A stretch of DNA of 64,000 bases from an uncultured bacterium (GTDB lineage Bacteria > Poribacteria > WGA-4E > PCPOR2b): positions 177,511 to 241,510 of the forward strand of contig CAZOAL010000006.1 in assembly GCA_964577695.1 (NCBI GenBank). The letters run 5' to 3'. This document shows positions 4,175-40,780 of the stretch, one piece after another (the stretch's first letter is position 1; every line of letters begins with the position of its first letter). The translations under genes were made by a program, and so were the position numbers. The notes below the pieces were generated by a model. It did no database searches and was not told where the DNA came from. It saw only the letters and a list, made by a program, of their open reading frames with translations.

Positions 4175-6103
4175 ATGAAAAAATCCGAACCTGAACATCT
4201 TCCCGCTCAAGTTACATGGCGGGCCTTACTTCTTGGCGTCCTGTTGATTCCGGTCAATGTTTACTGGATGACAATCGTCGAAGTAAAATACTATTCCCTC
4301 GACGGCTCTTGTCTCCCACTTTTCGTTGAACCTGTTTTTATCCTTTTTGTGATTATCCTTTTCAATTTACCCTTGAAGCGTTTCGCGCCGGGGGCAGTTC
4401 TGACGCAGGCGGAGCTCTTGACTATCTACATCATGGTGGCGATCTCCTGCACCTTCGCCGGACATGACACGCTCCAAAATATGTTTGGTAGCATCGTCCA
4501 CCCCTTCTGGTTTGCAACGCCGGAAAATGAGTGGCAGGAGCTATTCTTCCGCTACATCCCACGCTGGCTGACAGTGACCGACAGCCAAAGCCTCAAAGGG
4601 TTTTACGAAGGGGAATCGACTTTTTATCTGAGCCGAAACCTTTCCCTGTGGGCGAGACCACTCGCATTTTGGGGTCTGTTGTTTTTAGTGATGATGTTCA
4701 TGATGCTCTGCATCAACACGCTCATCCGTAAACGGTGGACTGAACAGGAGAAGCTCGCCTATCCGATTATCCAATTGCCGCTTGGGTTATCTGAAGATAG
4801 CGGCACAAAACTGCTGAAAAATCAGATGATGTGGATGGGGTTCAGCATTGCCGTCATCATCGGTCTCATCAACGGGATTCACTTTCTCGCGCCGCAATTC
4901 CCTGAAATCCCGTATATCAAACGAACGCTTATCTGGGATAACATCTTTACGGAGCGACCCTGGAGCGCGATGCGCGGCGTGCGGGTCTCAATGTACCCCT
5001 TCGCGATCGGATTGGCATTCTTCCTTCCGCTCGATTTGTCGTTTTCATGCTGGTTCTTCTTTGTCGTCCGGCTCATTGAACGGGTAATCGGCGAAGCGCT
5101 CGGTACGCGGTATTTTCCCGCGCTCAACGACCAGGCTTCCGGCGCATGGATTGCGCTGTTCTTCCTTGCGGTGTGGGTTACGCGCCGTCATTTAATCCAG
5201 GTCGGCAAAAAGATCTTTGGGCTTGATACGACGCTGGATGATTCCAACGAACCGATGCCGTATCGATGGGCGGCGATCGGCATTCTGGGTTCGATGCTCT
5301 TCATCGGCGCTTTCGTGTCTATCGCAGGGATGAAGCTATGGGTCGCGGGGATTTTCTTCGGACTGTATTTCATGCTCTCCTTTGCCATCACCCGGGTTCG
5401 AGCGGAGCTTGGCACGCCGCATGAGATCTATTTCGTCAACCCACACGACATCATGGCAACCGTGGGTGGGACTCGGCGCTTCGACCCGTCGAGTTTAACG
5501 ATTGTTTCCATGTTCTACTGGTTCAATCGCGGCTACCGAAACCACCCGATGCCGAACCAGATTGAGGCGTTCAAGATGGCGGAGGTCACCGGAATGGGGA
5601 ATCGACGCCTCTGGCTTGCGATGCTCATCGCTATCGTTGTGGGAATTTTTGCCACCTTTTGGGCGAACCTGGACATTACCTTTCGGAATGGCGCAATTGC
5701 AAAGGCGGGTGGATTCAAAGGGTGGGTCGGCTGGGAGTCCTTCAATCGGCTCCAGCGGTGGCTCATCAATCCATCAGACCCCAACTGGGCGGGGATTTCT
5801 TTCATGGGGGTTGGCGCAGTCCTGACCTTCCTCATGATGTTCATGCGGATGCGATTCTTATGGTGGCCCTTCCACCCTGCCGGATACGCCCTGGCGATCA
5901 GCTTTGCGATGGATTATTTCTGGTTCGCGTTCTTCGTGGCGTGGCTACTCAAGTACCTCATTCTGAGACACGGCGGCATCCAGATGCACCGGCGGGCGGC
6001 CCCCCTGTTTTTAGGGTTGATTCTGGGCGATTATGTGATCGGCAGCATCTGGGCGATTATTGGGCCGTCGTTCGGTATCCGAACCTACAAGATTTTTATA
6101 TGA
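4175..6103 (+). CDS. large polytopic membrane protein (more than 12 predicted TM segments), unknown function
   Basis: Long hydrophobic segments throughout; no family recognised. Confidence 0.6.
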   Translation: MKKSEPEHLPAQVTWRALLLGVLLIPVNVYWMTIVEVKYYSLDGSCLPLFVEPVFILFVIILFNLPLKRFAPGAVLTQAELLTIYIMVAISCTFAGHDTLQNMFGSIVHPFWFATPENEWQELFFRYIPRWLTVTDSQSLKGFYEGESTFYLSRNLSLWARPLAFWGLLFLVMMFMMLCINTLIRKRWTEQEKLAYPIIQLPLGLSEDSGTKLLKNQMMWMGFSIAVIIGLINGIHFLAPQFPEIPYIKRTLIWDNIFTERPWSAMRGVRVSMYPFAIGLAFFLPLDLSFSCWFFFVVRLIERVIGEALGTRYFPALNDQASGAWIALFFLAVWVTRRHLIQVGKKIFGLDTTLDDSNEPMPYRWAAIGILGSMLFIGAFVSIAGMKLWVAGIFFGLYFMLSFAITRVRAELGTPHEIYFVNPHDIMATVGGTRRFDPSSLTIVSMFYWFNRGYRNHPMPNQIEAFKMAEVTGMGNRRLWLAMLIAIVVGIFATFWANLDITFRNGAIAKAGGFKGWVGWESFNRLQRWLINPSDPNWAGISFMGVGAVLTFLMMFMRMRFLWWPFHPAGYALAISFAMDYFWFAFFVAWLLKYLILRHGGIQMHRRAAPLFLGLILGDYVIGSIWAIIGPSFGIRTYKIFI

Positions 6104-6199: not shown

Positions 6200-6276
6200 A
6201 ACTACTAACCACGTAAATTACGTCATTTGATTCGATGGAACCAACCCCATTACAACGCACAAGGGAAGATATTGAA

Positions 6277-6558
6277 ATGTCGCTTGTCAAAGTTATCCGA
6301 CATGGTCAAATTACTTTACCCGCAGGATTCCGTAAAGAATTAGCGATTCACGAGGGAGACTACCTGCAAGCTGAAATCCAAAAGGATTGCATCGTTCTCC
6401 GTCCACAAGTGGTGCTTGATCGCAACGATGCGATTTCTGCCTTGCATGCTCTCATGAACACAGTTCAAGATCGAACCGAAGGGATAAACGCAAAGACAAT
6501 CGATCAAGAAGTTGCAGAGGCGATCCAATCCATGCGACAGAAGAAACGCAATGCGTAA
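6277..6558 (+). CDS. AbrB/MazE/SpoVT-type DNA-binding antitoxin
   Basis: MSLVKVIRHGQITLPAGFRKEL looped-hinge-helix motif; overlaps the downstream PIN gene by 8 bp (ATGCGTAA). Confidence 0.65.
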   Translation: MSLVKVIRHGQITLPAGFRKELAIHEGDYLQAEIQKDCIVLRPQVVLDRNDAISALHALMNTVQDRTEGINAKTIDQEVAEAIQSMRQKKRNA

Positions 6559-7042
6559 AGTTGAACGAAGCGAAATCCCGAAAATCGGGGCGGTACTCGA
6601 TACCAACGTTATCATCAGTGCGCTTCTGACCCGTGGACGGACACCGGATCAGGTCGTGCGGCAGGCAGGGCTGACCTATCAGTTTTGTACGAGCCATGAA
6701 CTTTTGGAAGAAATTGAGGGCGTCTTACATGAGCCGAAGATTCAAAAAAGAAGCGGTATGACCGAAGCGGAGATGAGTGCGTTTTTAACGAACCTTCGAT
6801 CTGTTGCTGTTGTCGTTGAAGCGCTTCCGGCACTTCAGGTAATCAAAGACGACCCCGACGATGATTTGATTCTTGCCTGTGCGGTCAAAGCCCAAGCCGA
6901 TTATCTGGTCAGCGGAGACACTCACCTCTTACAACTTCAAACTTACGAAGGAATCCAGATCGTCTCTCCAGCACAGTTTCTCACCATCTTGCAACAATCT
7001 CAGGGGAAGAAAGAGAAAAACAATCCAAGGCACCCCCTATAA
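6551..7042 (+). CDS. PIN-domain toxin (TIGR00305-like toxin-antitoxin PIN family)
   Basis: VLDTNVIISAL N-terminal PIN signature and acidic residues further on. Confidence 0.65.
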   Translation: MRKVERSEIPKIGAVLDTNVIISALLTRGRTPDQVVRQAGLTYQFCTSHELLEEIEGVLHEPKIQKRSGMTEAEMSAFLTNLRSVAVVVEALPALQVIKDDPDDDLILACAVKAQADYLVSGDTHLLQLQTYEGIQIVSPAQFLTILQQSQGKKEKNNPRHPL

Positions 7043-7991: not shown

Positions 7992-8819
7992 ATGAAGCAA
8001 GAAAAATTCAATTTTCTTCGTTACCCAGGTGGAAAGCAAAGAATATTAAATCACTTAATACCTCACTTGCCGTTGCCAGAATCAATAAAGGGAAGGTTTG
8101 TAGAACCTTTTGTTGGTGGCGGTGCTGTTTTCTTTGCCTTGAATCCCAAACGAGCACTTTTGGCTGATATTAATTCGGAACTTATTGATCTATATCGTGG
8201 CCTACATCGTTATCCAGTCAAAGTTTGGGAAATATTCCAAGCATTTCCTCCAACGAAAAAGGCTTATTATGAAATTCGCGATTCAGATGTTGATGGATTG
8301 GATTTAGCATCACGAGCAGCCAGAACTCTCTATTTAAATAGGACGTGCTTTAAGGGTATGTGGAGACACAATTCAAATGGACAATTTAATGTTGGATATG
8401 GCGGCCAAGACAGGCGTTGGGTCATTAGCAAAGAAACTTTAATTGAGGTTTCTAGGAGGTTAAAGTATACCTCATTGAAAAGTAGTGATTTTGAAGAAGT
8501 GATTGATACTTGTACGGAGAGTGATTTCCTTTTTGCTGATCCTCCATACCGACCTGGTGAACGCGAAATGATTCATGATCATTATGTTTATCGCAGATTT
8601 AGCTATGATGATTATAAACGGTTGGCAAGTGTCTTAGAACGAGCATCTCACAAAGGAGTACAATGGACTATGACTACATCTTCCCACCATGATATATTGG
8701 ATCTGTTCCATGGAAATCGAATTATTTTGCTCCCGAAAGGCACAGGAAAAAAACCTGGCATACTCGCGGACAATCCTGGAGAAGTCTTAATCTGTAACTA
8801 CGAGGAGGCACCACAATGA
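7992..8819 (+). CDS. Dam-like DNA N6-adenine methyltransferase (D12 class)
   Basis: YPGGKQR N-terminal motif, FVEPFVGGGAV and DPPY motifs; AT-rich relative to its neighbours. Confidence 0.8.
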   Translation: MKQEKFNFLRYPGGKQRILNHLIPHLPLPESIKGRFVEPFVGGGAVFFALNPKRALLADINSELIDLYRGLHRYPVKVWEIFQAFPPTKKAYYEIRDSDVDGLDLASRAARTLYLNRTCFKGMWRHNSNGQFNVGYGGQDRRWVISKETLIEVSRRLKYTSLKSSDFEEVIDTCTESDFLFADPPYRPGEREMIHDHYVYRRFSYDDYKRLASVLERASHKGVQWTMTTSSHHDILDLFHGNRIILLPKGTGKKPGILADNPGEVLICNYEEAPQ

Positions 8820-11071
8820 AAGCGTTTTTTGAGAAAGCCGCGATGCAAAATCATCCCCTGCGAGTCTTAGAAACCTTCCTTAAACAGGAGAAGGCAAATG
8901 AGCAGGCGAAGAAGTATGACGATATGAGATTTGTCGGATATGTGCTTGAAATTGGCTACGATACAATTACAATCATCACTTGTGATCCATTTAAGATTGC
9001 TGTGGGTGGAGTTCCTCGGAATTCTTTGCTCATAATGGTGCCTGCAAGTCTTGATTCATTGCCTCTTCATTTTACTTTGCTCAGGGTTCTGGAATCTGCA
9101 CCCACTCCATTATCAAAAGAAGTTCAGCAAACCTACTTTGAGTTACAGAAAAAATCTATGCCTGAACTGGATGTATTCACCCAAAGCGAACTGCAATGGG
9201 GAGCACTTAAAACTGCTGTTCTCGGTATGTTCTATCCCCATCCTGAGAAAATGAATGCCGTCGAGTTTTCAGGTGACTTAAATAACTTCGTAAGTGCACA
9301 CAAATATCATGTGTACTCTCCAAATGATGACCTTTTGAATCTGATAGTTAATTCTATGGTACCTGACGAGAATCGCTTTGAAATAGGTAAACTGCGGCTG
9401 ACCGAGTGCCGTCTTCCTTTGCCCAATAAGCCTCTACCTGACGTTACCGTTCATGTTTCAACAAGAGATTTTATGGGTGCACGGACAGCAATGTTCGGTA
9501 AAACTCGACTTGGTAAAAGTAATGTTGTTAAGCTTATTGCCCAAAGCCTGATTGAGACGACAAATTTACAAAAAACGATTTTTGAGATCACAGAAACAAC
9601 TCTTCAGTCGCTAAAAAATGCTGAAGTACCAGAAGGAGTTATAGCAAAATTAGCAGAAAAAGATCAACACGTACAAGGTGTTAGTAAATTCAAAGAAGAA
9701 GTGTTATCTGTTTTAACTAACATTGAACAAAAAAATCACTCAAACATAATTATTGAGTGCTCGCATATTAAAGTAGGTCAACTCATTTTCGACATCACCG
9801 GTGAATACGCTAACGATAATCCACAGGATGATAGCCGCTCCCTTGCAAGTGGATATCCCGATCGTTGTTTTGTGTACGCTCTGAATCCCAAACCCTCGAC
9901 ACTATCGAAACCTTTGAAATTGAATTTTTATGAACAACCCGAAAGTTCGCACCGTATTATTGGAAGTTTGCTAAAACAAGATGGAAGAGCTTCAGGGTAT
10001 ATACAGAGTTTCATTAGTGTCGAATTACCTTCAATAGATGAAGTTAGACAACTGCCACCGGGAGGCGATCAGGTGGGGGCACTTAGGCAGATTCAGATCT
10101 TTTGGGCTATTCTTAAAAAAGCCGGATATCCCGTTGATGAATCTCGCCTTCGTTCAAAAGCTCCGACTGGCAGGGTAGCAAGTCAATTTAATCCTGGCTT
10201 CAGTAAAGATTTAAGAAAAGCAGTTTATGGGGATGAAAATTCCCCGCAACCGCCAAGTAGTCTTGATGAGTTAGTTAAAGAGTTTGAAAGGATAAACCGT
10301 TTTCGTAAGGAGAACTCAGATCACAAGTGCTTGGTCACTGATTCAAACAAATCCTTGTTTGACCCTGATGACATTGCACTCCTGGAATTTTTAGAACCGC
10401 AATCCGGACGGAGTGGAACAACACTTACCCAACCATACAGAATGTATCATGATAAGAATGCAGGAGATTTTATCAATGAAATCCTTAAACTTTTAGATGA
10501 TGGACAAACCGTGATCTTGGATTTAGGTAATGCGAATGAAGAAGTAAGAGACTACTTTTCTAATGAACTTTCAAAAGCAGTTTTTAATCACCAGAATGAC
10601 AAGTTCACAAATAATCGTTTGGGAAACCATTTTGTACAATTATATTTTGAAGAAGCACACAACCTTTTTCCGCACACCGAGGACGTAACTACTATTTACA
10701 GCCGTTTTTCAAAAGAAGGCGCAAAATACCATATCGGCATGGTATATTCCACTCAATCACCAACAACAGTTAATAAAGATTTACTCGCACAAACTGAGAA
10801 TTTCTTTATTGCTCATCTTTCCTCGCAGGATGAAGTCAATGCACTCGCAAGAGTTAACATTGCTTATGACAGCCTGAAAGACGACATACTTCGAGCAAAA
10901 ACCACTGGATATATCAGAATGTTGACTCGCTCACACCGCTTTGTGGTATCAGTACAAGCCAGAAGATTTACACCACCCACCACGGCAAAGGAAGCGGCTT
11001 ATGAAGCCACAGGCTTCCCCACGGCACATAAAAATACACTACCGCTATTTTCAGAGGAGGAAACGATATAA
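8816..11071 (+). CDS. HerA/FtsK-superfamily ATPase (HerA-like, DUF87): HAS-barrel N-terminus, Walker A GKTRLGKS, Walker B FEEAH
   Basis: Walker A at 9497-9524; Walker B LYFEEAHNLF at about 10641-10665; C-terminal YSTQSPTTVNKDLLAQTENFFIAHL resembles the HerA arginine-finger region. Overlaps the MTase by 4 bp. Confidence 0.7.
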   Translation: MKAFFEKAAMQNHPLRVLETFLKQEKANEQAKKYDDMRFVGYVLEIGYDTITIITCDPFKIAVGGVPRNSLLIMVPASLDSLPLHFTLLRVLESAPTPLSKEVQQTYFELQKKSMPELDVFTQSELQWGALKTAVLGMFYPHPEKMNAVEFSGDLNNFVSAHKYHVYSPNDDLLNLIVNSMVPDENRFEIGKLRLTECRLPLPNKPLPDVTVHVSTRDFMGARTAMFGKTRLGKSNVVKLIAQSLIETTNLQKTIFEITETTLQSLKNAEVPEGVIAKLAEKDQHVQGVSKFKEEVLSVLTNIEQKNHSNIIIECSHIKVGQLIFDITGEYANDNPQDDSRSLASGYPDRCFVYALNPKPSTLSKPLKLNFYEQPESSHRIIGSLLKQDGRASGYIQSFISVELPSIDEVRQLPPGGDQVGALRQIQIFWAILKKAGYPVDESRLRSKAPTGRVASQFNPGFSKDLRKAVYGDENSPQPPSSLDELVKEFERINRFRKENSDHKCLVTDSNKSLFDPDDIALLEFLEPQSGRSGTTLTQPYRMYHDKNAGDFINEILKLLDDGQTVILDLGNANEEVRDYFSNELSKAVFNHQNDKFTNNRLGNHFVQLYFEEAHNLFPHTEDVTTIYSRFSKEGAKYHIGMVYSTQSPTTVNKDLLAQTENFFIAHLSSQDEVNALARVNIAYDSLKDDILRAKTTGYIRMLTRSHRFVVSVQARRFTPPTTAKEAAYEATGFPTAHKNTLPLFSEEETI

Positions 11072-12394
11072 ATGCCATACAGAGCCGGACAACGTCTGCC
11101 AGCAGAAAAAGCAAGTCGCTTAGGACACCTTGATGTTCTAAAGAGCGATCTTGTCAAAGAACTATGCCACAGCTTTGAGGATCCCGAACTATCTATCACT
11201 TCACATAACGTTACGTGGGAACCTATACCTTCCAGCGGGGCTGCTGCCTTGCCATTGGTATTTGGCGTCGATGGTTCAATGCAACCTATCGAATCTGAGA
11301 CTCCACCTCATAAAGCGCTTGCATTTGTGAAAACGGCACTTTTAAGGATTGATTCATATGCTCTTGCAAAAATAGATAGAGATTCACCACACCCGTTTGC
11401 TCTAAGAGATATACTTGCAGATTCGGCGTTGTACCATGCCACGGTATTTCCACTAAGGAATGTGAGTATATCAGGACTAAATACCTATGATGCAATTCGC
11501 CAAATCATCTTTGAATCGGTTAAGGACGCCTCTTTGAAGGGCGAACCAATGGAAACGCTCAAATGGATTGTATATGGAAAATGGGATAATCAGGAAAAAG
11601 AACTTCCAAAGTTTGACTGCCCCCACTGTGAGGAGGAAGTTGCCACCCTACCGTATGATGTTGAAGAAGGGAAATGTCCAAAATGTAGCGAGAAATTATA
11701 TATTACCGATATGCTTGGCTTCCATCTAGAAATGGCTCCAGACTCAGCCCCCGATACCATAGCGACTGCATATATGAACATTCACGAGACGTTGCTCCTT
11801 TTTACTGGCATTCGCTACTTCTGGGAAACGAATAGAGATTTCTTATCTACTGATTGCCTTTTTGTGAAAGATGGTCCTCTCTCAATACGCGCTCAATACT
11901 CAAAACTGGTTGCACCAATTCGCCGCTTCTTGGCTTTTGCCAGGGAACAGGGTTATCCTGTGCATATCATTGGACAGGAAAAAACAGGCAGATTTGCAGA
12001 TTACCTACAATTGATAGGAAAGCACGCCCCTGTTCAGTCAATATTCATCCCCAACAATAAACATATTACAGAACATATTCAACATAGACCCCATCGTGGT
12101 GCCCCTTATGGGAGGGATACCAACTACGGTGCTAAAGTTTTCGTAAAAATCAATGACTATCACCAGATGGTATTGAATATTCCAACAGGTGCTTACAAAG
12201 AAAATCCAAAACAATCTGACCTCATTGGTGCTGATAGAATACTTGCTACATTACCGACGATTCTTAGTAATCGCTACGAAGGAGCACTCTTGCCAATTGA
12301 GCTTGCTCATGGTATTGCATCTCTATCAACCTATCCTTCAGCTCAGATTCTCAAAATTTTCGCCGAAAAAGCAATAAGTAAAAATACCCCATAA
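11072..12394 (+). CDS. putative NurA-like (RNase H-fold) nuclease with an inserted CxxC...CxxC zinc ribbon
   Basis: VFGVDGS (about 11258-11278) and LFVKDGPLS motifs resemble NurA motifs I and II; zinc ribbon CPHCEEE...CPKC; start abuts the HerA stop (TAAATG). Confidence 0.45.
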   Translation: MPYRAGQRLPAEKASRLGHLDVLKSDLVKELCHSFEDPELSITSHNVTWEPIPSSGAAALPLVFGVDGSMQPIESETPPHKALAFVKTALLRIDSYALAKIDRDSPHPFALRDILADSALYHATVFPLRNVSISGLNTYDAIRQIIFESVKDASLKGEPMETLKWIVYGKWDNQEKELPKFDCPHCEEEVATLPYDVEEGKCPKCSEKLYITDMLGFHLEMAPDSAPDTIATAYMNIHETLLLFTGIRYFWETNRDFLSTDCLFVKDGPLSIRAQYSKLVAPIRRFLAFAREQGYPVHIIGQEKTGRFADYLQLIGKHAPVQSIFIPNNKHITEHIQHRPHRGAPYGRDTNYGAKVFVKINDYHQMVLNIPTGAYKENPKQSDLIGADRILATLPTILSNRYEGALLPIELAHGIASLSTYPSAQILKIFAEKAISKNTP

Positions 12395-15197: not shown

Positions 15198-15521
<324 letters not shown>

Positions 15522-15522
15522 G

Positions 15523-15876
15523 ATGAAACTGCTGATGGATGAAAATATGCCCAGAGAAGCGGCCGACTTGCTACGAAATTCAGGACATGATGTCAAGTCC
15601 ATCCAGGATTTGAACTTACAGGGAACGAAAAATGGCGACATCTATCGACTCATACAGGCGGAAGATCGAATGCTCGTCACATTAGATTTGGATTTTGCCA
15701 ATATTCTGAACTATCCCACGCAGACGCATCCGGGAATCATTGTTTTGCGAGTTCGAGTACAAAATCCACCCTCAATCGTAGCAACCTTGCAACGTTTTCT
15801 CCAACAAGTGACCCCTGATCGACTGAAGGGAAATCTGACGATTGTTGATGAATTTCGCTACCGGATGAGGTCCTGA
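15523..15876 (+). CDS. DUF5615 (PIN-like) protein paired with DUF433
   Basis: MKLLMDENMP N-terminus; overlaps the upstream DUF433 gene. Confidence 0.55.
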   Translation: MKLLMDENMPREAADLLRNSGHDVKSIQDLNLQGTKNGDIYRLIQAEDRMLVTLDLDFANILNYPTQTHPGIIVLRVRVQNPPSIVATLQRFLQQVTPDRLKGNLTIVDEFRYRMRS

Positions 15877-22554: not shown

Positions 22555-22695
22555 AGGGTTGGTCATTATTCTCAGGGGAGGCAATCGTAGCCCAAGATTT
22601 CGACAAGCTCAACCCGGCGGATTCTATCTTGGCCCCTGGCGCATGGGCCAAGATAGAATCTTGGGCTACAACTCAACCGCCGGCGAATTATGACC
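22555..22695. mobile_element. MITE-like repeat family B, copy 2 (composite). Its terminal ATGACCAAGCC supplies the first ATG of the downstream giant ORF
   Basis: cgtagcccaagatt...ggccaagatagaatcttgggctac core; gaattatgaccaagcc end. Confidence 0.6.
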
Positions 22696-22719
22696 AAGCC
22701 TTACTTACCTAAATTTACA

Positions 22720-28782: not shown

Positions 28783-28812
28783 AGTGAAATGTGATTAAAC
28801 AGGTCATCTCTT

Positions 28813-29127
28813 TCATCGTTCATACAGGATTGTTCCCTCCTTGACTGCTGGGTAGATAACCGTTCCAACCATCTCTTTATAGGTGTTAAATTCTTCAGGC
28901 GTTTTAACGATAATATCTTTGGCAATCTTCCAGCGACGGAGTATCCTCTTTATTCCCAGGTTTCTTTTGGGGTTGGGGAGATCGGTTTCCAAAACAATCA
29001 GTAAATCTAAATCGCTATCATCTGTTGGATTACCATTGGCGTAAGAGCCAAAAAGGATAATCTTCTCCGGCTGATACGTCTCTACGAGAATGTCCCGGAT
29101 TTCGTCGATGGTCTTTTGATTAATCAT
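28813..29127 (-). CDS. minimal nucleotidyltransferase (MNT) toxin-antitoxin component
   Basis: LFGSYANGNPTDDSDLDLLIV nucleotidyltransferase motif. Confidence 0.7.
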   Translation of the reverse strand: MINQKTIDEIRDILVETYQPEKIILFGSYANGNPTDDSDLDLLIVLETDLPNPKRNLGIKRILRRWKIAKDIIVKTPEEFNTYKEMVGTVIYPAVKEGTILYER

Positions 29128-29159
29128 ATTCCTACCTCAAAATGTAACGCTTCATCTAA

Positions 29160-29255
29160 GCGACGTAGGCTTCCTCAGTGCGGATGGAATCATGCTTGAA
29201 CTGGATAGCTTCACGAACCGGGGCGAGAAATTTTGGGGGTTGTTTGTTCATCGGT
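29160..29255 (-). pseudogene. 31-codon fragment resembling the N-terminus of an integron-type tyrosine recombinase (MNKQPPKFLAPVREAIQFKHDSIRTEEAYVA*)
   Basis: L..VRE.IR.KHYS.RTE.AYV pattern typical of IntI-like N-terminal SAM-like domains; ends in a stop. Confidence 0.35.
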
Positions 29256-29385
29256 TATCTACCTCTTGACAGGTAGGGAATTTTAAGAGTATCATATTGG
29301 ACAGGTTAGGAGTCCGCTGGGTTTAATTCCGTCTAATAGGTAGCCGGATAAAAGCATTGTTTTAACTGCCAGATGAAAGTAAAAG

Positions 29386-32298
29386 ATGTCAAATAAACAA
29401 GCACTCCAAGAATTTGTTGATTACGTCAGACGATTAAAAGGCGATGAGAAAGGAGAGGCACAGTTGTTTTGTGACCGTTTCTTCCGTGCCTTTGGTTATG
29501 GCGGCATATTAGAGGCTCATGGCTCACTTGAGGCACGTATCAAGTTTAGCGACTCGGGTCGCACTAAATTTGCGGATTGCCTTTGGTCGCCGCATGGCAA
29601 AGATGGAGTGTTGATTGAGATGAAAAAGAAGGCGGAAAAGAATCTTGAAACTCATTTTCCGCAAGCCCGCGACTATTGGATTGAAATGAATCCGGAAAAG
29701 GTCATCGGGCCGGGGGCTCAAAAGCCAAAATATATCATTCTTTGCAACTTTGAGCGTTTTTTGCTCTACAGACAATTATCATTCGTTGACGAGATTACAA
29801 TTGACGAGTTTGTGGAGCGAGCCAGCGCCTTTAACTTTATGCTCCCGGAAGATAAAGAACCGATCTTCCACAACAATATTGAAGCTATTTCACAAGACGC
29901 GGCACGAACAATCGGTGAAATATTCAAACACTTAATTTTTGAAAAAGGGGAAGAACGGGAAGTCGCTCAACGTTTTCTTTTACAGTGTGTACTTGCCCTA
30001 TTTTCAGAGGATTTCGGTCTTTTGCCGCCGTTCATTTTTTCTGAGCTCATTCGTGACTGCCAAAGAGGGCAAAGCGCATACGATCTCTTAGGCGGCCTTT
30101 TTAGACAAATGGCGAGCGAGAAACCTGCGAAGGGTGGACGGTTCAAAGATGTCAAATATTTCAACGGCGGCCTTTTTGACGAAGTTGAGCCGCTGGAGCT
30201 CGATTCAACAAGTCTTAACCTTCTCGCTAACGCTGCCGATTTCAACTGGAAAAGTGTTAACCCTTCTATTTTTGGCGCTCTTTTTGAAAGCACGATGAAC
30301 GAAAAGGAGCGTCACCAATTTGGGGCGCATTACACAAGCGAAGCGGATATTTTGAAAATTGTTAATCCAACCATCGTGCGTCCGTGGAAGGAACGCTTAA
30401 ATAAGGCGAAAACACTCCAAGAGTTATCGAATTTACTGGACGAACTTGAAAATTTCAAAGTGCTAGACCCAGCCTGCGGGTGTGGTAATTTTCTTTATGT
30501 TGCCTACCGTGCTTTGAAAGACATTGAGATGCAGATTATTGAGAAAATCGCTGCTAACTTTTCTTCACGTTCGGTCAAACCTTTGAAATTCGGTATCTCC
30601 CGCGTATCTACTAAGCAATTCTACGGGATTGACCTTCTGCCCGTTGCCGTAGAGGTCGCGAAAGTGACCCTAATGCTTGGCAAGGAGTTGGCGGCAGATG
30701 AATGGAACAAACGTATCCGTTTGCTCATGTCAATCCTTGATCTCAATTTTGATGAGGGGTTGCCGTTGGAACGTCTGGACGATTTTATCATCTGTGATGA
30801 CGCCCTTTTCTGTGATTGGCCGGAATTCGATGTGGTTATCGGTAATCCGCCGTATCAATCGAAAAATAAAATGCAGATGGAAATGGACAGGGAATATATT
30901 GACCGGGTGAGAGCCCATTACCCCGATGTTCCAGGTCGAGCCGACTATTGCGTCTATTGGTTCCGACGAGGACACAAAGAGATGAAAGAAGGTCAACGTG
31001 CAGGTTTTGTCGGTACAAACACGATACGTCAAAACTATTCCCGCGAAGGTGGGCTCGACTATATTGTAAATAATGGTGGCACGATTACCGAAGCCGTTTC
31101 TACACAGGTGTGGTCAGGTGACGCTGTCGTTCACGTTTCGATTGTCAACTGGATAAAAGGAGCGGAAAAAGGGGGAAAGTCACTTGTATTACAACGTGGC
31201 GACTCGGTTGACTCGCCTTTTGATTATTATGATTTAGAATACATAAACTCCGCGTTGAGCCTTGCTGTCGATTTGACCTCAGCCAGATCCCTCAAGGTGA
31301 ATGAGAATTCCAATGCGTGTTTTCAAGGCCAAACACATGGGCACGAGAGTTTTTTGCTGGTGAGAGAGGAAGCGGAAAGTTTGCTGAAATCCGATGCAAA
31401 ATGTGGGGAGGTCTTGTTCCCATTTCTTACAGCCAATGAAATGATCGGGGGTGAAAATTCGCTTCCAAGACGATATGTGATTGACTTCCGCAAACACGAC
31501 ATATTTTCAGCCAAGAAATATTCAGAGCTTTTCAATAGAGTCCAGAGTTCCGTTTTGCCAGATCGGAAGGCAAAGGCGAAAGAAGAAGAACGACGAAACA
31601 ACGCTACGCTGGCAAAAAACCCGAATGCCCGTGTCAACCATCACCACGCCAATTTCCTTAAGCAATGGTGGAAGCTATCTTATCCACGAGACGAACTTAT
31701 GGAAATTATTGAGTCTATCCCCCGTTATTGCGTTTGTGGACAGGTTACTAAGCGCCCGATTTTTGAATTCATCTCTTCCGAGATTCATCCGAATGCAGCA
31801 TTGGTAGTTTTCCCCCTTGCTGATGACTACTCCTTTGGTATTTTGCAATCAATAGTACACTGGGAATGGTTCACCGCGCGCTGTTCAACATTGAAAGGTG
31901 ATTTCAGGTATACTTCAAATACTGTTTTTGACTCTTTTCCGTGGACTCAGAAACCAGCAAAGGCACAGGTAAAAGAAATCGCCAAGCGTGCTGTGGAATT
32001 GCGCTCCGTGCGGCGCAGGATAATGGCGGAAAATAAAATGAGTTTGCGTGAACTTTACCGGGTAATGGAAGAAACCGCTGCTAACCCGGTCAGTGAGGTG
32101 CAAGACAAACTAGATGCGGCAGTATTTTCAGCCTATGGGATGAAAAAGAATGATGATATTCTCGCTTTTCTACTTGCGTTAAATCTCGATTTGGCTGCAC
32201 AAGAAGCGAATGCGGAAGAAATATTCGGCCCAGGTCTCCCGCCACATATTGAAAATCCCGCAGAGTTTATTACGGGCGATTGCATTCGTATGCCGTAA
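29386..32298 (+). CDS. MmeI-family Type IIL/IIG restriction-modification enzyme (single-chain nuclease + gamma-class N6A MTase + target-recognition domain)
   Basis: N-terminal AQLFCDRFFRAFGY ... D-x9-EMK nuclease motif; VIGNPPYQSK MTase motif IV; 970 aa; AT-rich. Confidence 0.7.
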   Translation: MSNKQALQEFVDYVRRLKGDEKGEAQLFCDRFFRAFGYGGILEAHGSLEARIKFSDSGRTKFADCLWSPHGKDGVLIEMKKKAEKNLETHFPQARDYWIEMNPEKVIGPGAQKPKYIILCNFERFLLYRQLSFVDEITIDEFVERASAFNFMLPEDKEPIFHNNIEAISQDAARTIGEIFKHLIFEKGEEREVAQRFLLQCVLALFSEDFGLLPPFIFSELIRDCQRGQSAYDLLGGLFRQMASEKPAKGGRFKDVKYFNGGLFDEVEPLELDSTSLNLLANAADFNWKSVNPSIFGALFESTMNEKERHQFGAHYTSEADILKIVNPTIVRPWKERLNKAKTLQELSNLLDELENFKVLDPACGCGNFLYVAYRALKDIEMQIIEKIAANFSSRSVKPLKFGISRVSTKQFYGIDLLPVAVEVAKVTLMLGKELAADEWNKRIRLLMSILDLNFDEGLPLERLDDFIICDDALFCDWPEFDVVIGNPPYQSKNKMQMEMDREYIDRVRAHYPDVPGRADYCVYWFRRGHKEMKEGQRAGFVGTNTIRQNYSREGGLDYIVNNGGTITEAVSTQVWSGDAVVHVSIVNWIKGAEKGGKSLVLQRGDSVDSPFDYYDLEYINSALSLAVDLTSARSLKVNENSNACFQGQTHGHESFLLVREEAESLLKSDAKCGEVLFPFLTANEMIGGENSLPRRYVIDFRKHDIFSAKKYSELFNRVQSSVLPDRKAKAKEEERRNNATLAKNPNARVNHHHANFLKQWWKLSYPRDELMEIIESIPRYCVCGQVTKRPIFEFISSEIHPNAALVVFPLADDYSFGILQSIVHWEWFTARCSTLKGDFRYTSNTVFDSFPWTQKPAKAQVKEIAKRAVELRSVRRRIMAENKMSLRELYRVMEETAANPVSEVQDKLDAAVFSAYGMKKNDDILAFLLALNLDLAAQEANAEEIFGPGLPPHIENPAEFITGDCIRMP

Positions 32299-32340
32299 GG
32301 GGGGAGATAAACTGAGTGGTTGAAAACAAAATCCGGCTAA

Positions 32341-32445
32341 CAAAGCAGGTAGGTCAGGCTGCGCCTGACACCATATAGTCAGGCACAGCCTGACCTACTT
32401 ACTGACACCATATAGTCAGGCACAGCCTGACCTACTTACTCTGAC
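32341..32445. repeat. complex imperfect hairpin (aggtaggtcaggctgcgcctgac...cagcctgacctactt) followed by a 37-bp tandem direct repeat (gacaccatatagtcaggcacagcctgacctacttact x2)
   Basis: Seen in sequence. Confidence 0.6.
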
Positions 32446-32793
32446 TTTGGAGACGCTCTTAGGTTTGGAAGTGATGAGCCCTGTGATCTTGTTGTTGGTA
32501 AGGATGCTATCGATACTAAATACAGGGTGGGTTCTGGAGATTCTGGAACTCTAAAAAAGTTCAAGCAATATGGAAAATTACTTCAAGATGAAGGTTATAC
32601 CCCTGTTCTATTATTGGTTCGAGATGACAACTTGCCTGCTGCAATAACAGCATGCGAGGTCGGCGGATGGACGATTTCCACAGGGAAGGCAACATTTGAC
32701 TACATCGAACAAAAAACGGGTTTCGATTTATTGGGTTGGTTGAGCAATCATAGAGATAGAGGAACATTCTTGATTAATAGGGAGCAGCAATGA
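32431..32793 (+). pseudogene. 5'-truncated ORF (no ATG; opens immediately after the hairpin/direct-repeat region) overlapping the downstream MTase by ATGA; possible remnant of the cognate restriction endonuclease
   Basis: Reading frame DFGDALRFGSDEPCDLVVGKDAIDTKYRVGSGDSGTLKK...; position and 4-bp overlap suggest an R-M operon; function not recognised. Confidence 0.3.
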
Positions 32794-33716
32794 ACTATTT
32801 AGATCAAATTCTTCAAGGTGACTGCATTTCTATTATGTCAGAAATGCCAAAGGATTCTATTGCTGCGTGTATCACCGACCCACCATACAATTATGAATTT
32901 ATTGGTAGAAAATGGGATGACAAGGAAATCAATCGAAGATTAGAGAGAATAAAAGAGAGCAAAACACTTGTGAAAAATATCCCCTATGGGAGTGGGTTGG
33001 CTGGAGGAGTCCGCAATTTTAGATGGTATGAAAGAAATTATGAAAATGTAATTGAGTACACAAACTGGTGCAAAGAGTGGGGTAAGGAGCTTTTTAAGGT
33101 ATGCAAGAACGGATCACCCGTTGCTGTTTTCAATAGCACAAGAACCGTGGCGCATGTACAAGTCGCTCTTGAAGAAGCTGGTTTCTATACACGCGATATT
33201 CTTGTACATCGCCGACGTTCAGGCATACCAAAGGGGTTAAACCTTAAAAGCAAATTAGAAAAAATGCATCATCCGGATGCAGATAAATGGGAGGGCTGGC
33301 ACACTTGCTTTAGAAACGAATGGGAAGCGATAGTGCTTGTTCAGAAGCCTTTAATTAAAAACTATTGGGAGACACTTGAAAAAACAGGTGTTGGAGTCTT
33401 TAAGACTCTCAATGAAGATGGCTCTTTTCAGTCAAACATTCTAGAGGGTTACTATAGTAAGTCTGAGAAAAAGTTTGCGCACTGCACGGTCAAGCCTTTG
33501 GAGCTAATAAAGAAACTTATTCTTACTCTGGTGCCGAAATCGGATGACAACGTAGTTCTAGACCCTTTTGCCGGAAGTGGCACTACTCTAGTAGCGGCAA
33601 AACAGCTCGGTTATCATTTTACAGGAATCGAAATAGAGCCAGAGTATGTACAAATAATTGAAAATAGAATCTTAGAAACCTTTCAGCCTGCACTTGAATT
33701 TGAAAAAAGCACCTAA
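32790..33716 (+). CDS. beta-class DNA methyltransferase (DPPY motif IV near the N-terminus, FAGSGTT motif I near the C-terminus), probably N6-adenine
   Basis: ACITDPPYNY and VLDPFAGSGTTLVAA motifs; AT-rich. Confidence 0.75.
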   Translation: MNYLDQILQGDCISIMSEMPKDSIAACITDPPYNYEFIGRKWDDKEINRRLERIKESKTLVKNIPYGSGLAGGVRNFRWYERNYENVIEYTNWCKEWGKELFKVCKNGSPVAVFNSTRTVAHVQVALEEAGFYTRDILVHRRRSGIPKGLNLKSKLEKMHHPDADKWEGWHTCFRNEWEAIVLVQKPLIKNYWETLEKTGVGVFKTLNEDGSFQSNILEGYYSKSEKKFAHCTVKPLELIKKLILTLVPKSDDNVVLDPFAGSGTTLVAAKQLGYHFTGIEIEPEYVQIIENRILETFQPALEFEKST

Positions 33717-33741
33717 CAAGGCGCTGTAGTTGACGGTCCGA
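33711..33741. repeat. direct repeat copy 1 (cctaacaaggcgctgtagttgacggtccgat) bounding a small TA cassette
   Basis: About 26 of 31 nt identical to the copy at 34880-34910. Confidence 0.55.
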
Positions 33742-33950
33742 TAGATCGGACGAGCACGGGGCTCTTCGGTTTAATAATGTTTTTTGGGTTGCGACGGGTT
33801 TCGGTTTGTTGGACGTTTTCGGCAACCCCCCGCCGTGCTCGTCCGAGAATCGGAAAACTGAACTTTTGTTGTTAAGCACCGAATATACCCGGGCTGAGTT
33901 TTATAACGGACAATGTTTGCCTAACCCGCCGAAAAAAATTAACTGACTGA

Positions 33951-34256
33951 TTGAAAGAGATGCCAAGAAGCAGAATTGAGCGCATCAGAGAGAAGGTTCG
34001 ACGGCGGCAGCACGATATGTCGGCTCATTCGATGGAAGAAATGGCTGAAGACGGCTTAGACATTGAGGATGTTGAGCGAGCCATTCTCAACGGGCGTATT
34101 GCCAGAATTGAAAGAGACGATCCAAGAGGAACGAAATATGTTGTGGAAGGCATTGGAGCAGATGGGTTGACTCCCGTCGGGAGTGTTGGCCGTTTCACCA
34201 GTACCGGACGCTATTTGATTATCACAGTTTATGAGATCTCCACCCTTGAGGATTAA
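33951..34256 (+). CDS. DUF4258-family protein (toxin-like)
   Basis: HA.ERM.ERGI-like N-terminal region; weak recognition; paired with the zinc-finger protein downstream. Confidence 0.4.
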   Translation: MKEMPRSRIERIREKVRRRQHDMSAHSMEEMAEDGLDIEDVERAILNGRIARIERDDPRGTKYVVEGIGADGLTPVGSVGRFTSTGRYLIITVYEISTLED

Positions 34257-34261
34257 AAACT

Positions 34262-34519
34262 ATGTACGGATATCGATGTGAATACTGCGAAGGCAAAGTG
34301 CAACCCCGACAGGTTGAACGTGAGGCATTTAAACATAAAAATGGCTTTGTTATTTTAGAAAATATCATTGTTGGTGTCTGTGATGTATGTGGAAATCGGT
34401 ATTACAGTGCTGACATACTGCACACGGTTCATGAGATTGCCACGGGCAAGCAGAAACCGGAACGAATAGAACAGATTCCTGTTGCTCGTTTGATACCAGC
34501 AAGTCCAGGCGTGAGCTAG
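34262..34519 (+). CDS. YgiT/MqsA-type zinc-finger protein (antitoxin-like)
   Basis: CEYCEG...CDVCGNRYYS two CxxC pairs. Confidence 0.5.
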   Translation: MYGYRCEYCEGKVQPRQVEREAFKHKNGFVILENIIVGVCDVCGNRYYSADILHTVHEIATGKQKPERIEQIPVARLIPASPGVS

Positions 34520-34586
34520 AGCTCGCTGTCCGTTGCACCGGATGTTATTCGCTTCAAACATCACACGTTACCTAAGGAGGTCGTAA

Positions 34587-34877
34587 ATGATGAAACCTGA
34601 AGAAAGAAAAACAACAGCAATAGACAGTGTCATTACATGCGATGACGAGATTCTGAGTGGCACACCTGTGTTCAGGAGAACTCGTGTGCCTATCAAAAAC
34701 CTGATTGATTATTTGGAAGCTGGTGATAGCCTTGACGACTTCTTGGATGACTTCCCTTCAGTCAACCGTGAACAAGCCATCCAAGCGTTGGAACTGGCAA
34801 AAGAGGCCCTCTTAACACAAGCCTATGCGAATTCTTATCGACGAGTGTCTGCCTACTCACCAAATCGTTCTCATTGA
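34587..34877 (+). CDS. DUF433-domain protein (second copy), aberrant C-terminal tail
   Basis: Resembles ORF 15234-15521; paired DUF5615 gene is truncated. Confidence 0.5.
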   Translation: MMKPEERKTTAIDSVITCDDEILSGTPVFRRTRVPIKNLIDYLEAGDSLDDFLDDFPSVNREQAIQALELAKEALLTQAYANSYRRVSAYSPNRSH

Positions 34878-34884
34878 ATCCTAA
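34825..34884 (+). pseudogene. DUF5615 N-terminal remnant (MRILIDECLPTHQIVLIES*), cut off at the direct repeat at 34880
   Basis: Matches the N-terminus MKLLMDENMP of the intact DUF5615 gene at 15523; stop lies inside CCTAACAAGG. Confidence 0.45.
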
Positions 34885-34910
34885 CAAGGCATTGCCGTTG
34901 ACGGTCCGAT
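34880..34910. repeat. direct repeat copy 2 (cctaacaaggcattgccgttgacggtccgat)
   Basis: See copy 1. Confidence 0.55.
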
Positions 34911-34921
34911 TCCCCCCTTCA

Positions 34922-35779
34922 TCACCACCGCGGCGGCGTTTCAACAAACTGCTGATAGTACCCCTCAATATTGGCTTCAGCGGCGTCGCCTTCGTGGATG
35001 AGGATGCGAAACCGTTGCGTCAAGCGTCCACCATGAGGAAGCTCGTACTTTTCCAGCAGCGTGAAATTCGTGAGAAATGTGCCGTAATTCCGCGTAAAAA
35101 AGGGCGATGGCGGATTCGATGGGTGGTTCATCAACGTAATCCCGACCTTTTTCCCTGCAACGACCCCGCTATAGTCCGTCCAATTCGCATACTGCCGCAT
35201 CGCTTCCTCTTCGTTGCGTTGCCCGTTCGAGTTCAGAATGGTCCCGCCATCTTCCACATCAATCGTATCGGCGACGCGCGCGCCCAGAAACGAATGGGTA
35301 TCCTGCCCAAATATCAGATCGGTCTGGCTGGCGATAAGCGTACTGGTCAGATCGATGATATGCGCCGCTTCGCCGGGGATGACCGTGAAGTTGCGCGCCT
35401 CGTCCAGCATATGAACTCCCTTCTTCGTAATCCAGCCGTTATGCGTCATGACGTGGATGCCGTTAGCGTCGATCTCATGCTCACTTCTTTCAAGAACGAT
35501 ATCCCCTTCATTCGGGCGGGTCGGATTGTTGTCGTGAAAAAAGTTAATCCCATTCACGTTGGCGTGCCCGATGAAAATCGATTTGTGGTGGTTGAAACGA
35601 TAGGCACTGGTACACGTCACTTCACATCCGCTGGGTGAATAGACGGGATAGAAGTCAGGACGCGACTTGTACATATCGCCGTAGCGGATACAGCCTTTGT
35701 TATAAGCGAGGAAAAATGTCTCGCCGTTATAGAATTTGAAACGGAGTTCTTCTTCAACAATTCTTGGGTTGATTGCCAT
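34922..35779 (-). CDS. PmoA-family / DUF6807-like protein
   Basis: FYPVYSPSGCEVT...NHHKSIFIGHANVNGINFF pattern. Confidence 0.45.
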   Translation of the reverse strand: MAINPRIVEEELRFKFYNGETFFLAYNKGCIRYGDMYKSRPDFYPVYSPSGCEVTCTSAYRFNHHKSIFIGHANVNGINFFHDNNPTRPNEGDIVLERSEHEIDANGIHVMTHNGWITKKGVHMLDEARNFTVIPGEAAHIIDLTSTLIASQTDLIFGQDTHSFLGARVADTIDVEDGGTILNSNGQRNEEEAMRQYANWTDYSGVVAGKKVGITLMNHPSNPPSPFFTRNYGTFLTNFTLLEKYELPHGGRLTQRFRILIHEGDAAEANIEGYYQQFVETPPRW

Positions 35780-40651: not shown

Positions 40652-40780
40652 GGATGGTCATCATTCGCCGACGGTTGAGTTGTAGCCCAAGATTCTATCT
40701 TGGCCCCTTACGCAAGGGCCAAGTTAGAAACTTGGGCTACGATTGCCTCCCCTGGGAATTATGACCAACCCTCAACTAAC
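40652..40780. mobile_element. MITE-like repeat family B, copy 3
   Basis: ggatggtcatcattcg...gttgtagcccaagattctatcttggcc...ggccaagttagaaacttgggctac...gaattatgaccaacc. Confidence 0.6.

Follow-up and report, generated by a model that had tools for sequence, protein, structure and literature searches.

We analysed a stretch of 64,000 nucleotides (nt), here called the window, of contig CAZOAL010000006.1 from an uncultured member of the Poribacteria (assembly GCA_964577695.1), and within it an island of restriction-modification and toxin-antitoxin (TA) genes that also contains the remnant of an integron-integrase gene. The island reaches from the stop codon of a giant surface-protein gene to 12 nt short of the stop codon of a gene for a DUF6807 ('PmoA family') protein, i.e., from 28783 to about 34910. 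A contig in the JGI metagenome 3300010391 (Ga0136847_10267547) is nearly identical to the window (99.9%), Logan contigs of SRR6155503 match it at 100%, and the relatives of the DUF6807 protein come nearly all from Candidatus Poribacteria genomes. The following features were found in the island and at its borders (aa, amino acids; ORF, open reading frame):

up to 28782: giant surface-protein gene, 2030 aa, Big_13 and CHU_C domains, stop codon ending at 28782
28788-28823, minus strand: HEPN toxin gene reduced to about 11 codons (MNDERDDLFNH), which overlap the stop of the MNT gene
28813-29127, minus strand: minimal nucleotidyltransferase (MNT) gene, MntA-type antitoxin family, intact
29138-29251, minus strand: integron-integrase gene, 5' remnant of 38 codons with codon 32 altered from TGG to TAG
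29156-29251, minus strand: 31-codon ORF, the integrase remnant up to its in-frame stop
29252-29326, plus strand: conserved platform upstream of the integrase start, aligned with loci L054, L055 and L056
29266-29295, plus strand: promoter TTGACA-18-TATCAT, 15 nt upstream of the integrase start, reading into the array
29386-32298, plus strand: MmeI-family single-chain restriction-modification enzyme, 970 aa, apparently intact, first cargo after the platform
32335-32341, plus strand: R''-box remnant GGCTAAC, what is left of an attC-like site after the MmeI-family gene, its interior deleted
32344-32440, plus strand: hairpin A, an ORF-free conserved element of about 60 nt, in the window with a 37-nt tandem duplication
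32433-32793, plus strand: 5'-truncated Type II restriction endonuclease gene, containing an 88-codon ORF (32527-32793)
32790-33716, plus strand: beta-class N6/N4 DNA methylase with DPPY motif, intact (PF01555, E 1.5e-33; PADLOC MTase_II)
33711-33877, plus strand: attC-like site B, complete, 167 nt, with the methylase stop codon inside its R'' box
33951-34256, plus strand: DUF4258 protein (PF14076, E 4.6e-11)
34262-34519, plus strand: YgiT/MqsA-type zinc-finger protein (TIGR03831, E 3.4e-9)
34587-34877, plus strand: DUF433 protein, antitoxin-type partner, intact (PF04255, E 3.3e-17)
34825-34884, plus strand: remnant of a DUF5615 (PIN-like toxin) gene, 19 codons, its stop falling within R'' of site C
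34879-34910, plus strand: attC-like site C, 5' half (R'' TCCTAAC, 5 nt, L'', TTGACGGTCCGAT), abutting the DUF6807 3' flank
34922-35779, minus strand: DUF6807 protein gene, convergent, at the right edge of the island

All seven genes and gene fragments downstream of the integrase remnant are co-oriented and point away from it. A sequence-only reading of this DNA, made before our analysis, had placed the island between the surface-protein and PmoA-family genes, which stands, and had set its limits at 28800-34915, which we correct to those given above. It had also described a GC content well below that of the flanks, and the GC fraction of the island is indeed 0.443, compared with 0.512 outside it in the window and 0.578 in the giant gene; only 1.3% of same-size windows reach a value as low. 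The defence and TA cargo that it listed was recovered in full, with every ORF at its place and the assignments backed by profile searches. There is no tRNA or tmRNA gene in the 64-kb window, a profile search revealed no phage or conjugation domain among the island proteins, and an Rfam search of the island gave no match; the island does not present the set of features (tRNA or tmRNA target, att repeats, phage or conjugation genes) that marks a tRNA-targeted genomic island or prophage remnant.

Integrase remnant, promoter platform and attC-like sites

The 31-codon fragment had already been likened to the N-terminus of an integron integrase, and the profile searches agree. With its stop codon read through, the remnant matched in NCBIfam only the two integron-integrase models TIGR02249 (E 1.3e-5) and PRK15417 (E 1.8e-4), and it also matched PF13495 (E 8e-5). 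In tblastn searches with IntI1 of plasmid pNDM33-1, residues 9-45 aligned to the remnant at 43% identity and residues 15-97 to a longer copy in locus L054 (E 2.6e-11), the identity of IntI1 to the copies in the window, L054, L055 and L056 being 43-53%. Judged by these matches, the fragment is homologous to the N-terminus of the IntI family. A complete integron would have an intI gene for a tyrosine recombinase with the catalytic and the integron-specific additional domain, but the window retains only 38 N-terminal codons with an in-frame TAG; IntI1 residues 98-337 found no tblastn match anywhere in the window. The end of the remnant coincides exactly with the start of the ribosome-binding site of the MNT module.

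The remnant and about 75 nt upstream of it recur at 76-81% identity in L054 (first of two copies), L055 and L056. L054 stems from the same JGI metagenome as the near-identical window contig, L055 from the ENA sample that also contains contig L031 (see below), and L056 is part of the NCBI assembly GCA_016178185.1. The in-frame TAG is peculiar to the window, the other three copies having TGG at that codon. The first copy in L054 continues past a frameshift to about codon 90 (...EIEAFLTH*AVDGQVVASTQNQAL...) and is followed by a thiamine pyrophosphate (TPP)-enzyme gene, the second copy in L054 retains about 24 codons beside panC, and the copy in L056 runs for about 58 codons up to an acyl-CoA dehydrogenase gene. 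No two copies are cut at the same point or have the same flanking genes. The coding differences among the four fragments are distributed over the three codon positions as 28:21:70, indicating that the copies diverged under protein-level constraint as working genes and were truncated later, at different points. The copies adjoin housekeeping genes and face restriction-modification or TA cargo, which is co-oriented in L054 and L056:

L054, first copy: 212-aa protein and 419-aa methylase, then DUF4258 and zinc-finger genes
L054, second copy: 216-aa ORF, then DUF433 and DUF5615 genes
L056: 179-aa protein, then VapB-like and PIN genes, then a HicB-like gene
L055 (830 bp): one divergent 67-aa ORF

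The order platform, first cargo, hairpin A, second cargo, site B is common to the window, L054 and L056, and the cargo differs. No other sequence in the island matches a promoter as well as that of the platform (11 of 12 positions), which lies between the remnant and the divergent cargo. Homology of the platform among the four loci ends after CTGGGTTTA (29317-29325), a candidate attI crossover; the GTTTAAT at this point fits GTTRRRY at six of seven positions only and is a candidate by sequence alone. Palindromic units (TTAGACGGAAA..TTTCCGTCTAA) are repeated in the stretch that separates the integrase fragment from the first cargo gene, in L054 (about 5540-5720), L055 (325-520), L056 (2410-2500) and L031 (92-138), some of those in L054 and L031 reading ..CCGTATAAT and giving -10 boxes; the window retains one half, CCGTCTAAT, at 29329-29337. 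From their sequence, these units could be integrase-binding or operator sites.

Site B follows the methylase directly. Its 5' boxes are R'' ACCTAAC, which fits RYYYAAC, and, after a 5-nt spacer, L'' GCTgTAG, i.e., G(Y)T-G-(Y)AG with one extrahelical G; then come a long bulged stem with a variable end, L' CTGAAC, a 7-nt spacer and R' GTTAAGC (GTTRRRY), so that all boxes stand at the canonical 5-nt and 7-nt spacing. The copies of B in L054 and L056 are 83-85% identical to it. All three have in common the sequence from AGC-ACCTAAC (beginning 3 nt before R'') to AACTGAAC-N7-GTT, have unrelated flanks on both sides and read AAGC, GGGC and AGGC after the GTT. The homology within this family therefore ends at the G/TT of R', which matches the point at which integron cassettes are joined. 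Both arms of the long stem are present in the window copy only, the 5' arm being lost from the copy in L054 and the 3' arm from that in L056. L056 contains a fourth member of the family, of 88 nt, directly before hairpin A, and a further 5' half. Over the four copies, 91.7% of the R-box and L-box pairs are paired, against 10-48% when the partners are slid, and the 5' core CTAAC-N5-NYTGNNG-NTGAC occurs in the window, L054 and L056 only and is absent from about 650 kb of other Poribacteria loci.

Site C matches B over 31 nt at 87% identity, where no chance match is expected. After the MmeI-family gene, the window reads GGCTAACAA joined directly to AGCAGGTAGG, and L056 reads GCCTAACAA, about 80 nt of attC interior, GTT and then AGCAGGTAGG; compared in this way, the junction in the window is a clean loss of the hairpin interior of a putative attC. 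Within 2.6 kb, the window thus holds one complete site, one 5' half and one R'' remnant, all with co-oriented cargo, and curated attC tools would probably count B alone. A metagenome scan with CTAACAAGGC-N7-GTTGACGG returned five matches that looked like chance, and GTCCGAT/ATCGGAC, taken as a genome-wide motif, showed no enrichment.

We also built a covariance model (R1) from 11 attC sites of class 1 integrons on four plasmids, in which the R and L boxes form 13 base pairs. R1 recovers its training sites and the held-out sites of arr-2 and arr-3, misses that of estX and penalises long sites, and its E-values are rough. Applied to L054, L055, L056 and L031, it matched the copies of B in L056 (17.6 bits, E 0.009) and L054 (11.2 bits), as well as a 69-nt site in L054 (1063-1131, minus strand; 21.1 bits, E 0.0012) downstream of the second integrase fragment. 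The latter site falls inside the 216-aa ORF listed above, which is itself doubtful. Our reading of these elements as attC sites draws on the alignment of the family, its boundaries and the location of the elements at stop codons beside an integrase remnant, together with the partial match to R1, which does not score B significantly. On this reading, the integrase fragment is not incidental debris: with the promoter region and the attC-like sites it organises the whole island, a point that the sequence-only reading had missed.

Hairpin A occurs at the equivalent place, the start of the second cargo slot, in L031, L054 and L056 (81-95% identity). The hairpin and direct-repeat block described earlier is real: the 37-nt unit is present in 2.1 copies at 100% identity (32365-32440), and the folding z-score of the region is -6.5. 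TTAGGT at 32460 is complementary to R'' of site B and was considered as an R' box, but was dropped, L031 showing that it is coding sequence of the endonuclease.

Cargo modules, their truncations and strain variation

The MmeI-family enzyme, which the sequence-only reading took to be apparently intact, has all five Pfam domains of MmeI (PF20464, PF20465, PF20473, PF20466, PF07669) and is covered from end to end (residues 4-968) by the PADLOC model PDLC03599. It matches MmeI of known structure (PDB 5HR4) with E 1.4e-54, best over residues 18-687, with the D...E-x-K nuclease motif aligned (D...EMK), and the motifs NPPY and DPACGCGNF are legible in its translation. By this architecture it is a member of the MmeI family of Type IIL/IIG enzymes, with a predicted nuclease, helical spacer, gamma-class N6A methyltransferase and target-recognition domain in one chain. 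It has in common with MmeI the five-domain architecture and the conserved nuclease and NPPY methyltransferase motifs, but it is only distantly matched to that enzyme and is known here from its sequence. Exact look-ups of this enzyme and of the MNT protein returned the same strain only.

The 88-codon ORF overlaps the methylase gene by ATGA. It belongs to a family with 1217 homologues, the full-length ones having 191 aa, and one of them, P0001, is an intact endonuclease, 99% identical, on the ENA contig L031 from another metagenome, which confirms the earlier description of a 5'-truncated ORF coupled to a DPPY methylase. Compared with L031, the window lacks 290 bp (L031 positions 90-379) that comprise a TATAAT promoter and the first 72 codons of the endonuclease, and this deletion lies directly beside hairpin A, which has gained the perfect 37-nt tandem duplication. 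The pair in the window is thus no longer intact, the endonuclease being without its promoter and about 72 of its 191 codons; the methylase is complete and, except for its last 6 codons, identical in DNA to the L031 copy at 98.7%. In L031 the pair has its own TATAAT promoter and a palindromic operator-like site. Pfam gave no match for the endonucleases P0001, P0025, P0036 and P0059, even though PF09499 is attached as a precomputed label to some homologues.

At the left end of the island, the MNT protein matches Polbeta and NTP_transf_2 in Pfam, its best NCBIfam match being MntA_antitoxin (E 4e-8). In another Poribacteria locus, L005, an MNT gene of 73% identity is followed by a HEPN gene (PF05168, E 4e-24), and the DNA homology between L005 and the window passes through the HEPN start and ends about 8 nt from the stop codon of the giant gene. 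The MNT gene noted before our analysis is therefore present, but the family to which it belongs is that of the antitoxin MntA rather than a toxin, and its HEPN partner, reported as not obvious, survives as about 11 codons. With so little of HEPN left, the MNT is an orphan antitoxin and not part of a working HEPN/MNT type VII system, in spite of its likeness to that system in family and in the related Poribacteria operon. The intact operon of L005 (9262-9979) lies between dnaE and the DUF6807 gene, i.e., on the side of DUF6807 opposite to that of the MNT gene in the window.

At the right end, the DUF4258 and YgiT zinc-finger genes were found as predicted and, by their profile matches, apparently form an intact TA module; in L054 a DUF4258 ORF likewise adjoins a zinc-finger ORF with a weak MqsA_antitoxin match. 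The DUF433 gene is complete and its DUF5615 partner has been reduced to 19 codons. The earlier reading of this ORF holds on motif similarity only: it begins MRILIDECLP, comparable to MKLLMDENMP of an intact 124-aa DUF5615 protein (15502-15876), and it is too short for a profile match.

In three of the four two-gene modules, the toxic gene is broken (HEPN, endonuclease, DUF5615) and the protective one kept (MNT, methylase, DUF433), and in the fourth, DUF4258/YgiT, both partners look complete. Loss of the toxic gene first is the survivable order for addiction modules.

Elsewhere in the window there are intact TA pairs, a MazE-like and a PIN protein at 6235-7042 and DUF433 with DUF5615 at 15234-15876, and such pairs are dispersed through the backbone of this genome. 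The other low-GC stretch of the window lies at about 6-12 kb. There, 7992-12394 (GC about 0.41) encodes a D12-class (Dam-like) methylase, a 440-aa protein without a Pfam match and one of 751 aa that weakly matches the HerA/DUF87 ATPase domain, and may be another defence system. A 75-nt intergenic repeat (89% identity) occurs just upstream of the giant surface-protein gene (22622-22696) and at about 40655-40729.

The sequence-only reading saw a decaying, repeatedly remodelled hotspot of integration. Decay is evident in the truncated HEPN, integrase, endonuclease and DUF5615 genes and in the eroded attC-like sites. Remodelling between strains is evident too: L031 carries the endonuclease-methylase pair intact, with other neighbours, and the flanks of the DUF6807 gene diverge. 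In close DUF6807 relatives (88-95% identity) both flanks differ from those in the window, the divergence beginning just past the stop codon. The window, L031 and L032 have in common only the stop codon, a G-run and ATCGGAC, beyond which they diverge, L041 has a diverged version of this flank, and that of L040 is wholly different. A recurrent hotspot is not supported. None of 28 DUF6807 loci (mostly Poribacteria, about 80% identity) retains the junction between the surface-protein and DUF6807 genes or has either flank in common with the window, and the junction is not conserved in the closer relatives either (1-kb contigs or dnaE-DUF6807 contexts); as no sampled relative conserves it, it cannot be called a recurrent hotspot.

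In L031 the endonuclease-methylase pair is followed by a 68-aa ORF, a 138-bp 3' fragment of a DUF6807 gene and then a DUF433 gene. The fragment (within L031 1918-2085) corresponds to the last 44 codons of DUF6807 and lies between the 68-aa ORF and DUF433; this arrangement may be a real rearrangement or an assembly chimera. In L032 (1-144), a DUF6807 gene of 95% identity is preceded by a C-terminus (...YRILYAIDDVRQLVTIWLAGKRNDDEIY...) that by eye resembles a RelE/ParE-type toxin, and the sequence upstream is unlike the window.

An integron origin weighed against other explanations

We consider it likely that a chromosomal integron of Candidatus Poribacteria, loaded with defence and addiction modules, has eroded to the present island. 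The original element would have had an integron-integrase gene on the minus strand, with a divergent promoter and an attI-type site beside it; beyond attI, cassettes would have followed one another in a single orientation, with a structured attC from one lineage-specific family at the end of each. Circular cassettes would have been integrated at attI by the integrase and excised at attC. The cargo consists of the MmeI-family enzyme, the endonuclease-methylase pair, the DUF4258/YgiT pair and the DUF433/DUF5615 pair, and the strong platform promoter, which precedes the MmeI-type gene, would drive it. During decay, the integrase gene was cut after about 38 codons and joined to the MNT-HEPN module, the attC-like site after the MmeI-family gene was reduced to its R'' box and the last one lost its 3' half, while hairpin A underwent its 37-nt duplication beside the 290-bp deletion that removed the promoter and first 72 codons of the endonuclease. 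To judge from their intact sequences, the MmeI-type enzyme, the orphan methylase and the DUF4258/YgiT pair are most likely the parts that still work. An integron origin would account for cargo that is co-oriented and punctuated by hairpins.

Several results weigh against this interpretation. The window contains no integrase catalytic domain, and hence no integron-specific insertion to inspect, and an exhaustive phmmer search of 1.84 billion representative proteins found no full-length relative of the fragment: of the five matches, four were short N-terminal fragments of 31-69 aa, and three were placed on contigs. A word-index search with the 40-aa fragment returned only the fragment itself. 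All five or six known integrase copies are cut within the first 90 codons (24-90 kept), which fits the proposal poorly, and simple cassette capture would not be expected to give the fixed order of A and then B with differing cargo in three loci. Hairpin A does not have the form of a canonical attC, and there are no compensatory base changes among the four copies of the B family. R1 found nothing significant in the whole window (best E 0.9); confined to 33650-33950, it aligned site B globally from R'' to R' as we read it, with only 6.1 bits. A hand-made structural attC scan gave 49 hits in the window, hence was non-specific and of no use. Finally, the pair in L031 has a promoter of its own, unlike most cassettes, which are promoterless, and no site B, and its homology to the window ends 14 nt before R'' and not at G/TT. 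TA cassettes with their own promoters are known exceptions to the promoterless rule.

An origin as a generic defence island, in which modules accumulated piecemeal between two convergent genes, the integrase fragment being debris of another tyrosine-recombinase element and A and B terminator-like or resembling repetitive extragenic palindromic (REP) elements, seems to us improbable. It would be in keeping with the occurrence of TA pairs throughout the genome (6235-7042, 15234-15876 and L033), with the variation of both DUF6807 flanks between close strains, with the promoter of the restriction-modification pair in L031, with the lack of a significant attC score in the window and with the N-terminal SAM-like domain PF13495, which is not exclusive to integron integrases. 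However, it leaves unexplained why the integrase 5' fragment, the promoter, A and B recur jointly in one order with other cargo, why the homology of the B family stops at the R'' and R' boxes, and why a model trained on class 1 integrons matches the copy in L056; and A and B, absent from the 650 kb of other Poribacteria sequence, are not genome-wide repeats. More doubtful still is the idea that the integrase 5' fragment, promoter, A and B form a mobile or duplicated scaffold independent of any integron integrase, its cargo swapped by homologous recombination at the punctuation. The identical order with different cargo in the window, L054 and L056 and the truncation of every known integrase copy within 90 codons speak for it, as does the shuffling of cassettes in chromosomal integrons by transformation and homologous recombination that one study reports (PMC12614218), but the codon-position pattern indicates that the fragments diverged as working genes, a better fit to the independent decay of separate integrons, and each copy has its own truncation point and flanking genes.

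The 31-nt direct repeat (33712 and 34880) might also be taken for attL and attR of a 1.17-kb integrative module of two TA pairs, inserted at the DUF6807 3' flank by a site-specific recombinase. The two copies are indeed 87% identical, with none expected by chance, and the repeat closes with the heptamer GTCCGAT, which recurs in the DUF6807 flank of L031 and L032 and, in diverged form, of L041. Yet the structured element B runs on for 136 nt beyond the repeat, its L054 and L056 counterparts flank quite different cargo, the profile search found no recombinase gene in the segment, and a DUF5615 gene cut at the second repeat fits a deletion better than an insertion, so that we regard this explanation as very improbable.

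An integron origin, the interpretation that we favour, can be extended: in this lineage, integron platforms may repeatedly have become integrase-less fixed expression sites for defence and addiction modules. The arrays retain a common punctuation (attC, hairpin A, attC B) around differing cargo, which may have been exchanged by homologous recombination at the conserved marks or mobilised in trans rather than acquired by classical capture. We hold this wider proposal to be possible, though on balance unlikely.

Relation to known integrons and biological meaning

The closest parallel is found in the chromosomal integrons of Xanthomonas, in which intI has been inactivated lineage by lineage through truncation, stops or deletions, and fixed arrays, whose cargo includes TA genes, remain beside housekeeping genes (bioRxiv 10.1101/2025.06.18.660453). 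The island resembles these inactivated integrons, and clusters of attC sites lacking integron-integrases (CALIN), in its platform with a knocked-out integrase, its fixed array beside housekeeping genes and its TA cargo. It differs in that the host is a member of Candidatus Poribacteria, no copy of the integrase seen extends beyond its first 24-90 codons, the attC-like sites have themselves undergone erosion, and the array is short, dominated by restriction-modification and TA genes and includes large genes (2.9 kb). A full-text literature search for Poribacteria together with integrons found passing mentions only, in five papers.

Phage defence is among the functions known to be encoded by integron cassettes (bioRxiv 10.1101/2024.07.02.601719), and defence cargo behind a platform promoter is also what the island appears to present. 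The published examples (bioRxiv 10.1101/2024.07.02.601719; PMC12614218) are compact cassettes of active integrons in Proteobacteria, whereas in the island the platform is no longer functional, a sister strain has one of the modules under its own promoter, and defence is predicted.

The island is most likely a known kind of element in an unusual host, of note for that host and for its advanced decay. If our reading is correct, it would place integrons in Candidatus Poribacteria and reveal one of them at a late stage of decay, with the integrase gone, the recombination sites eroded and the toxic halves of the modules deleted, while the large restriction enzyme and the protective partners were kept. 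It would then illustrate, in nature, how an integron array can turn into a defence island and become fixed, and the lineage-specific attC family and the platform would serve as search patterns for more such arrays, and perhaps for a living integrase, in Poribacteria metagenomes.

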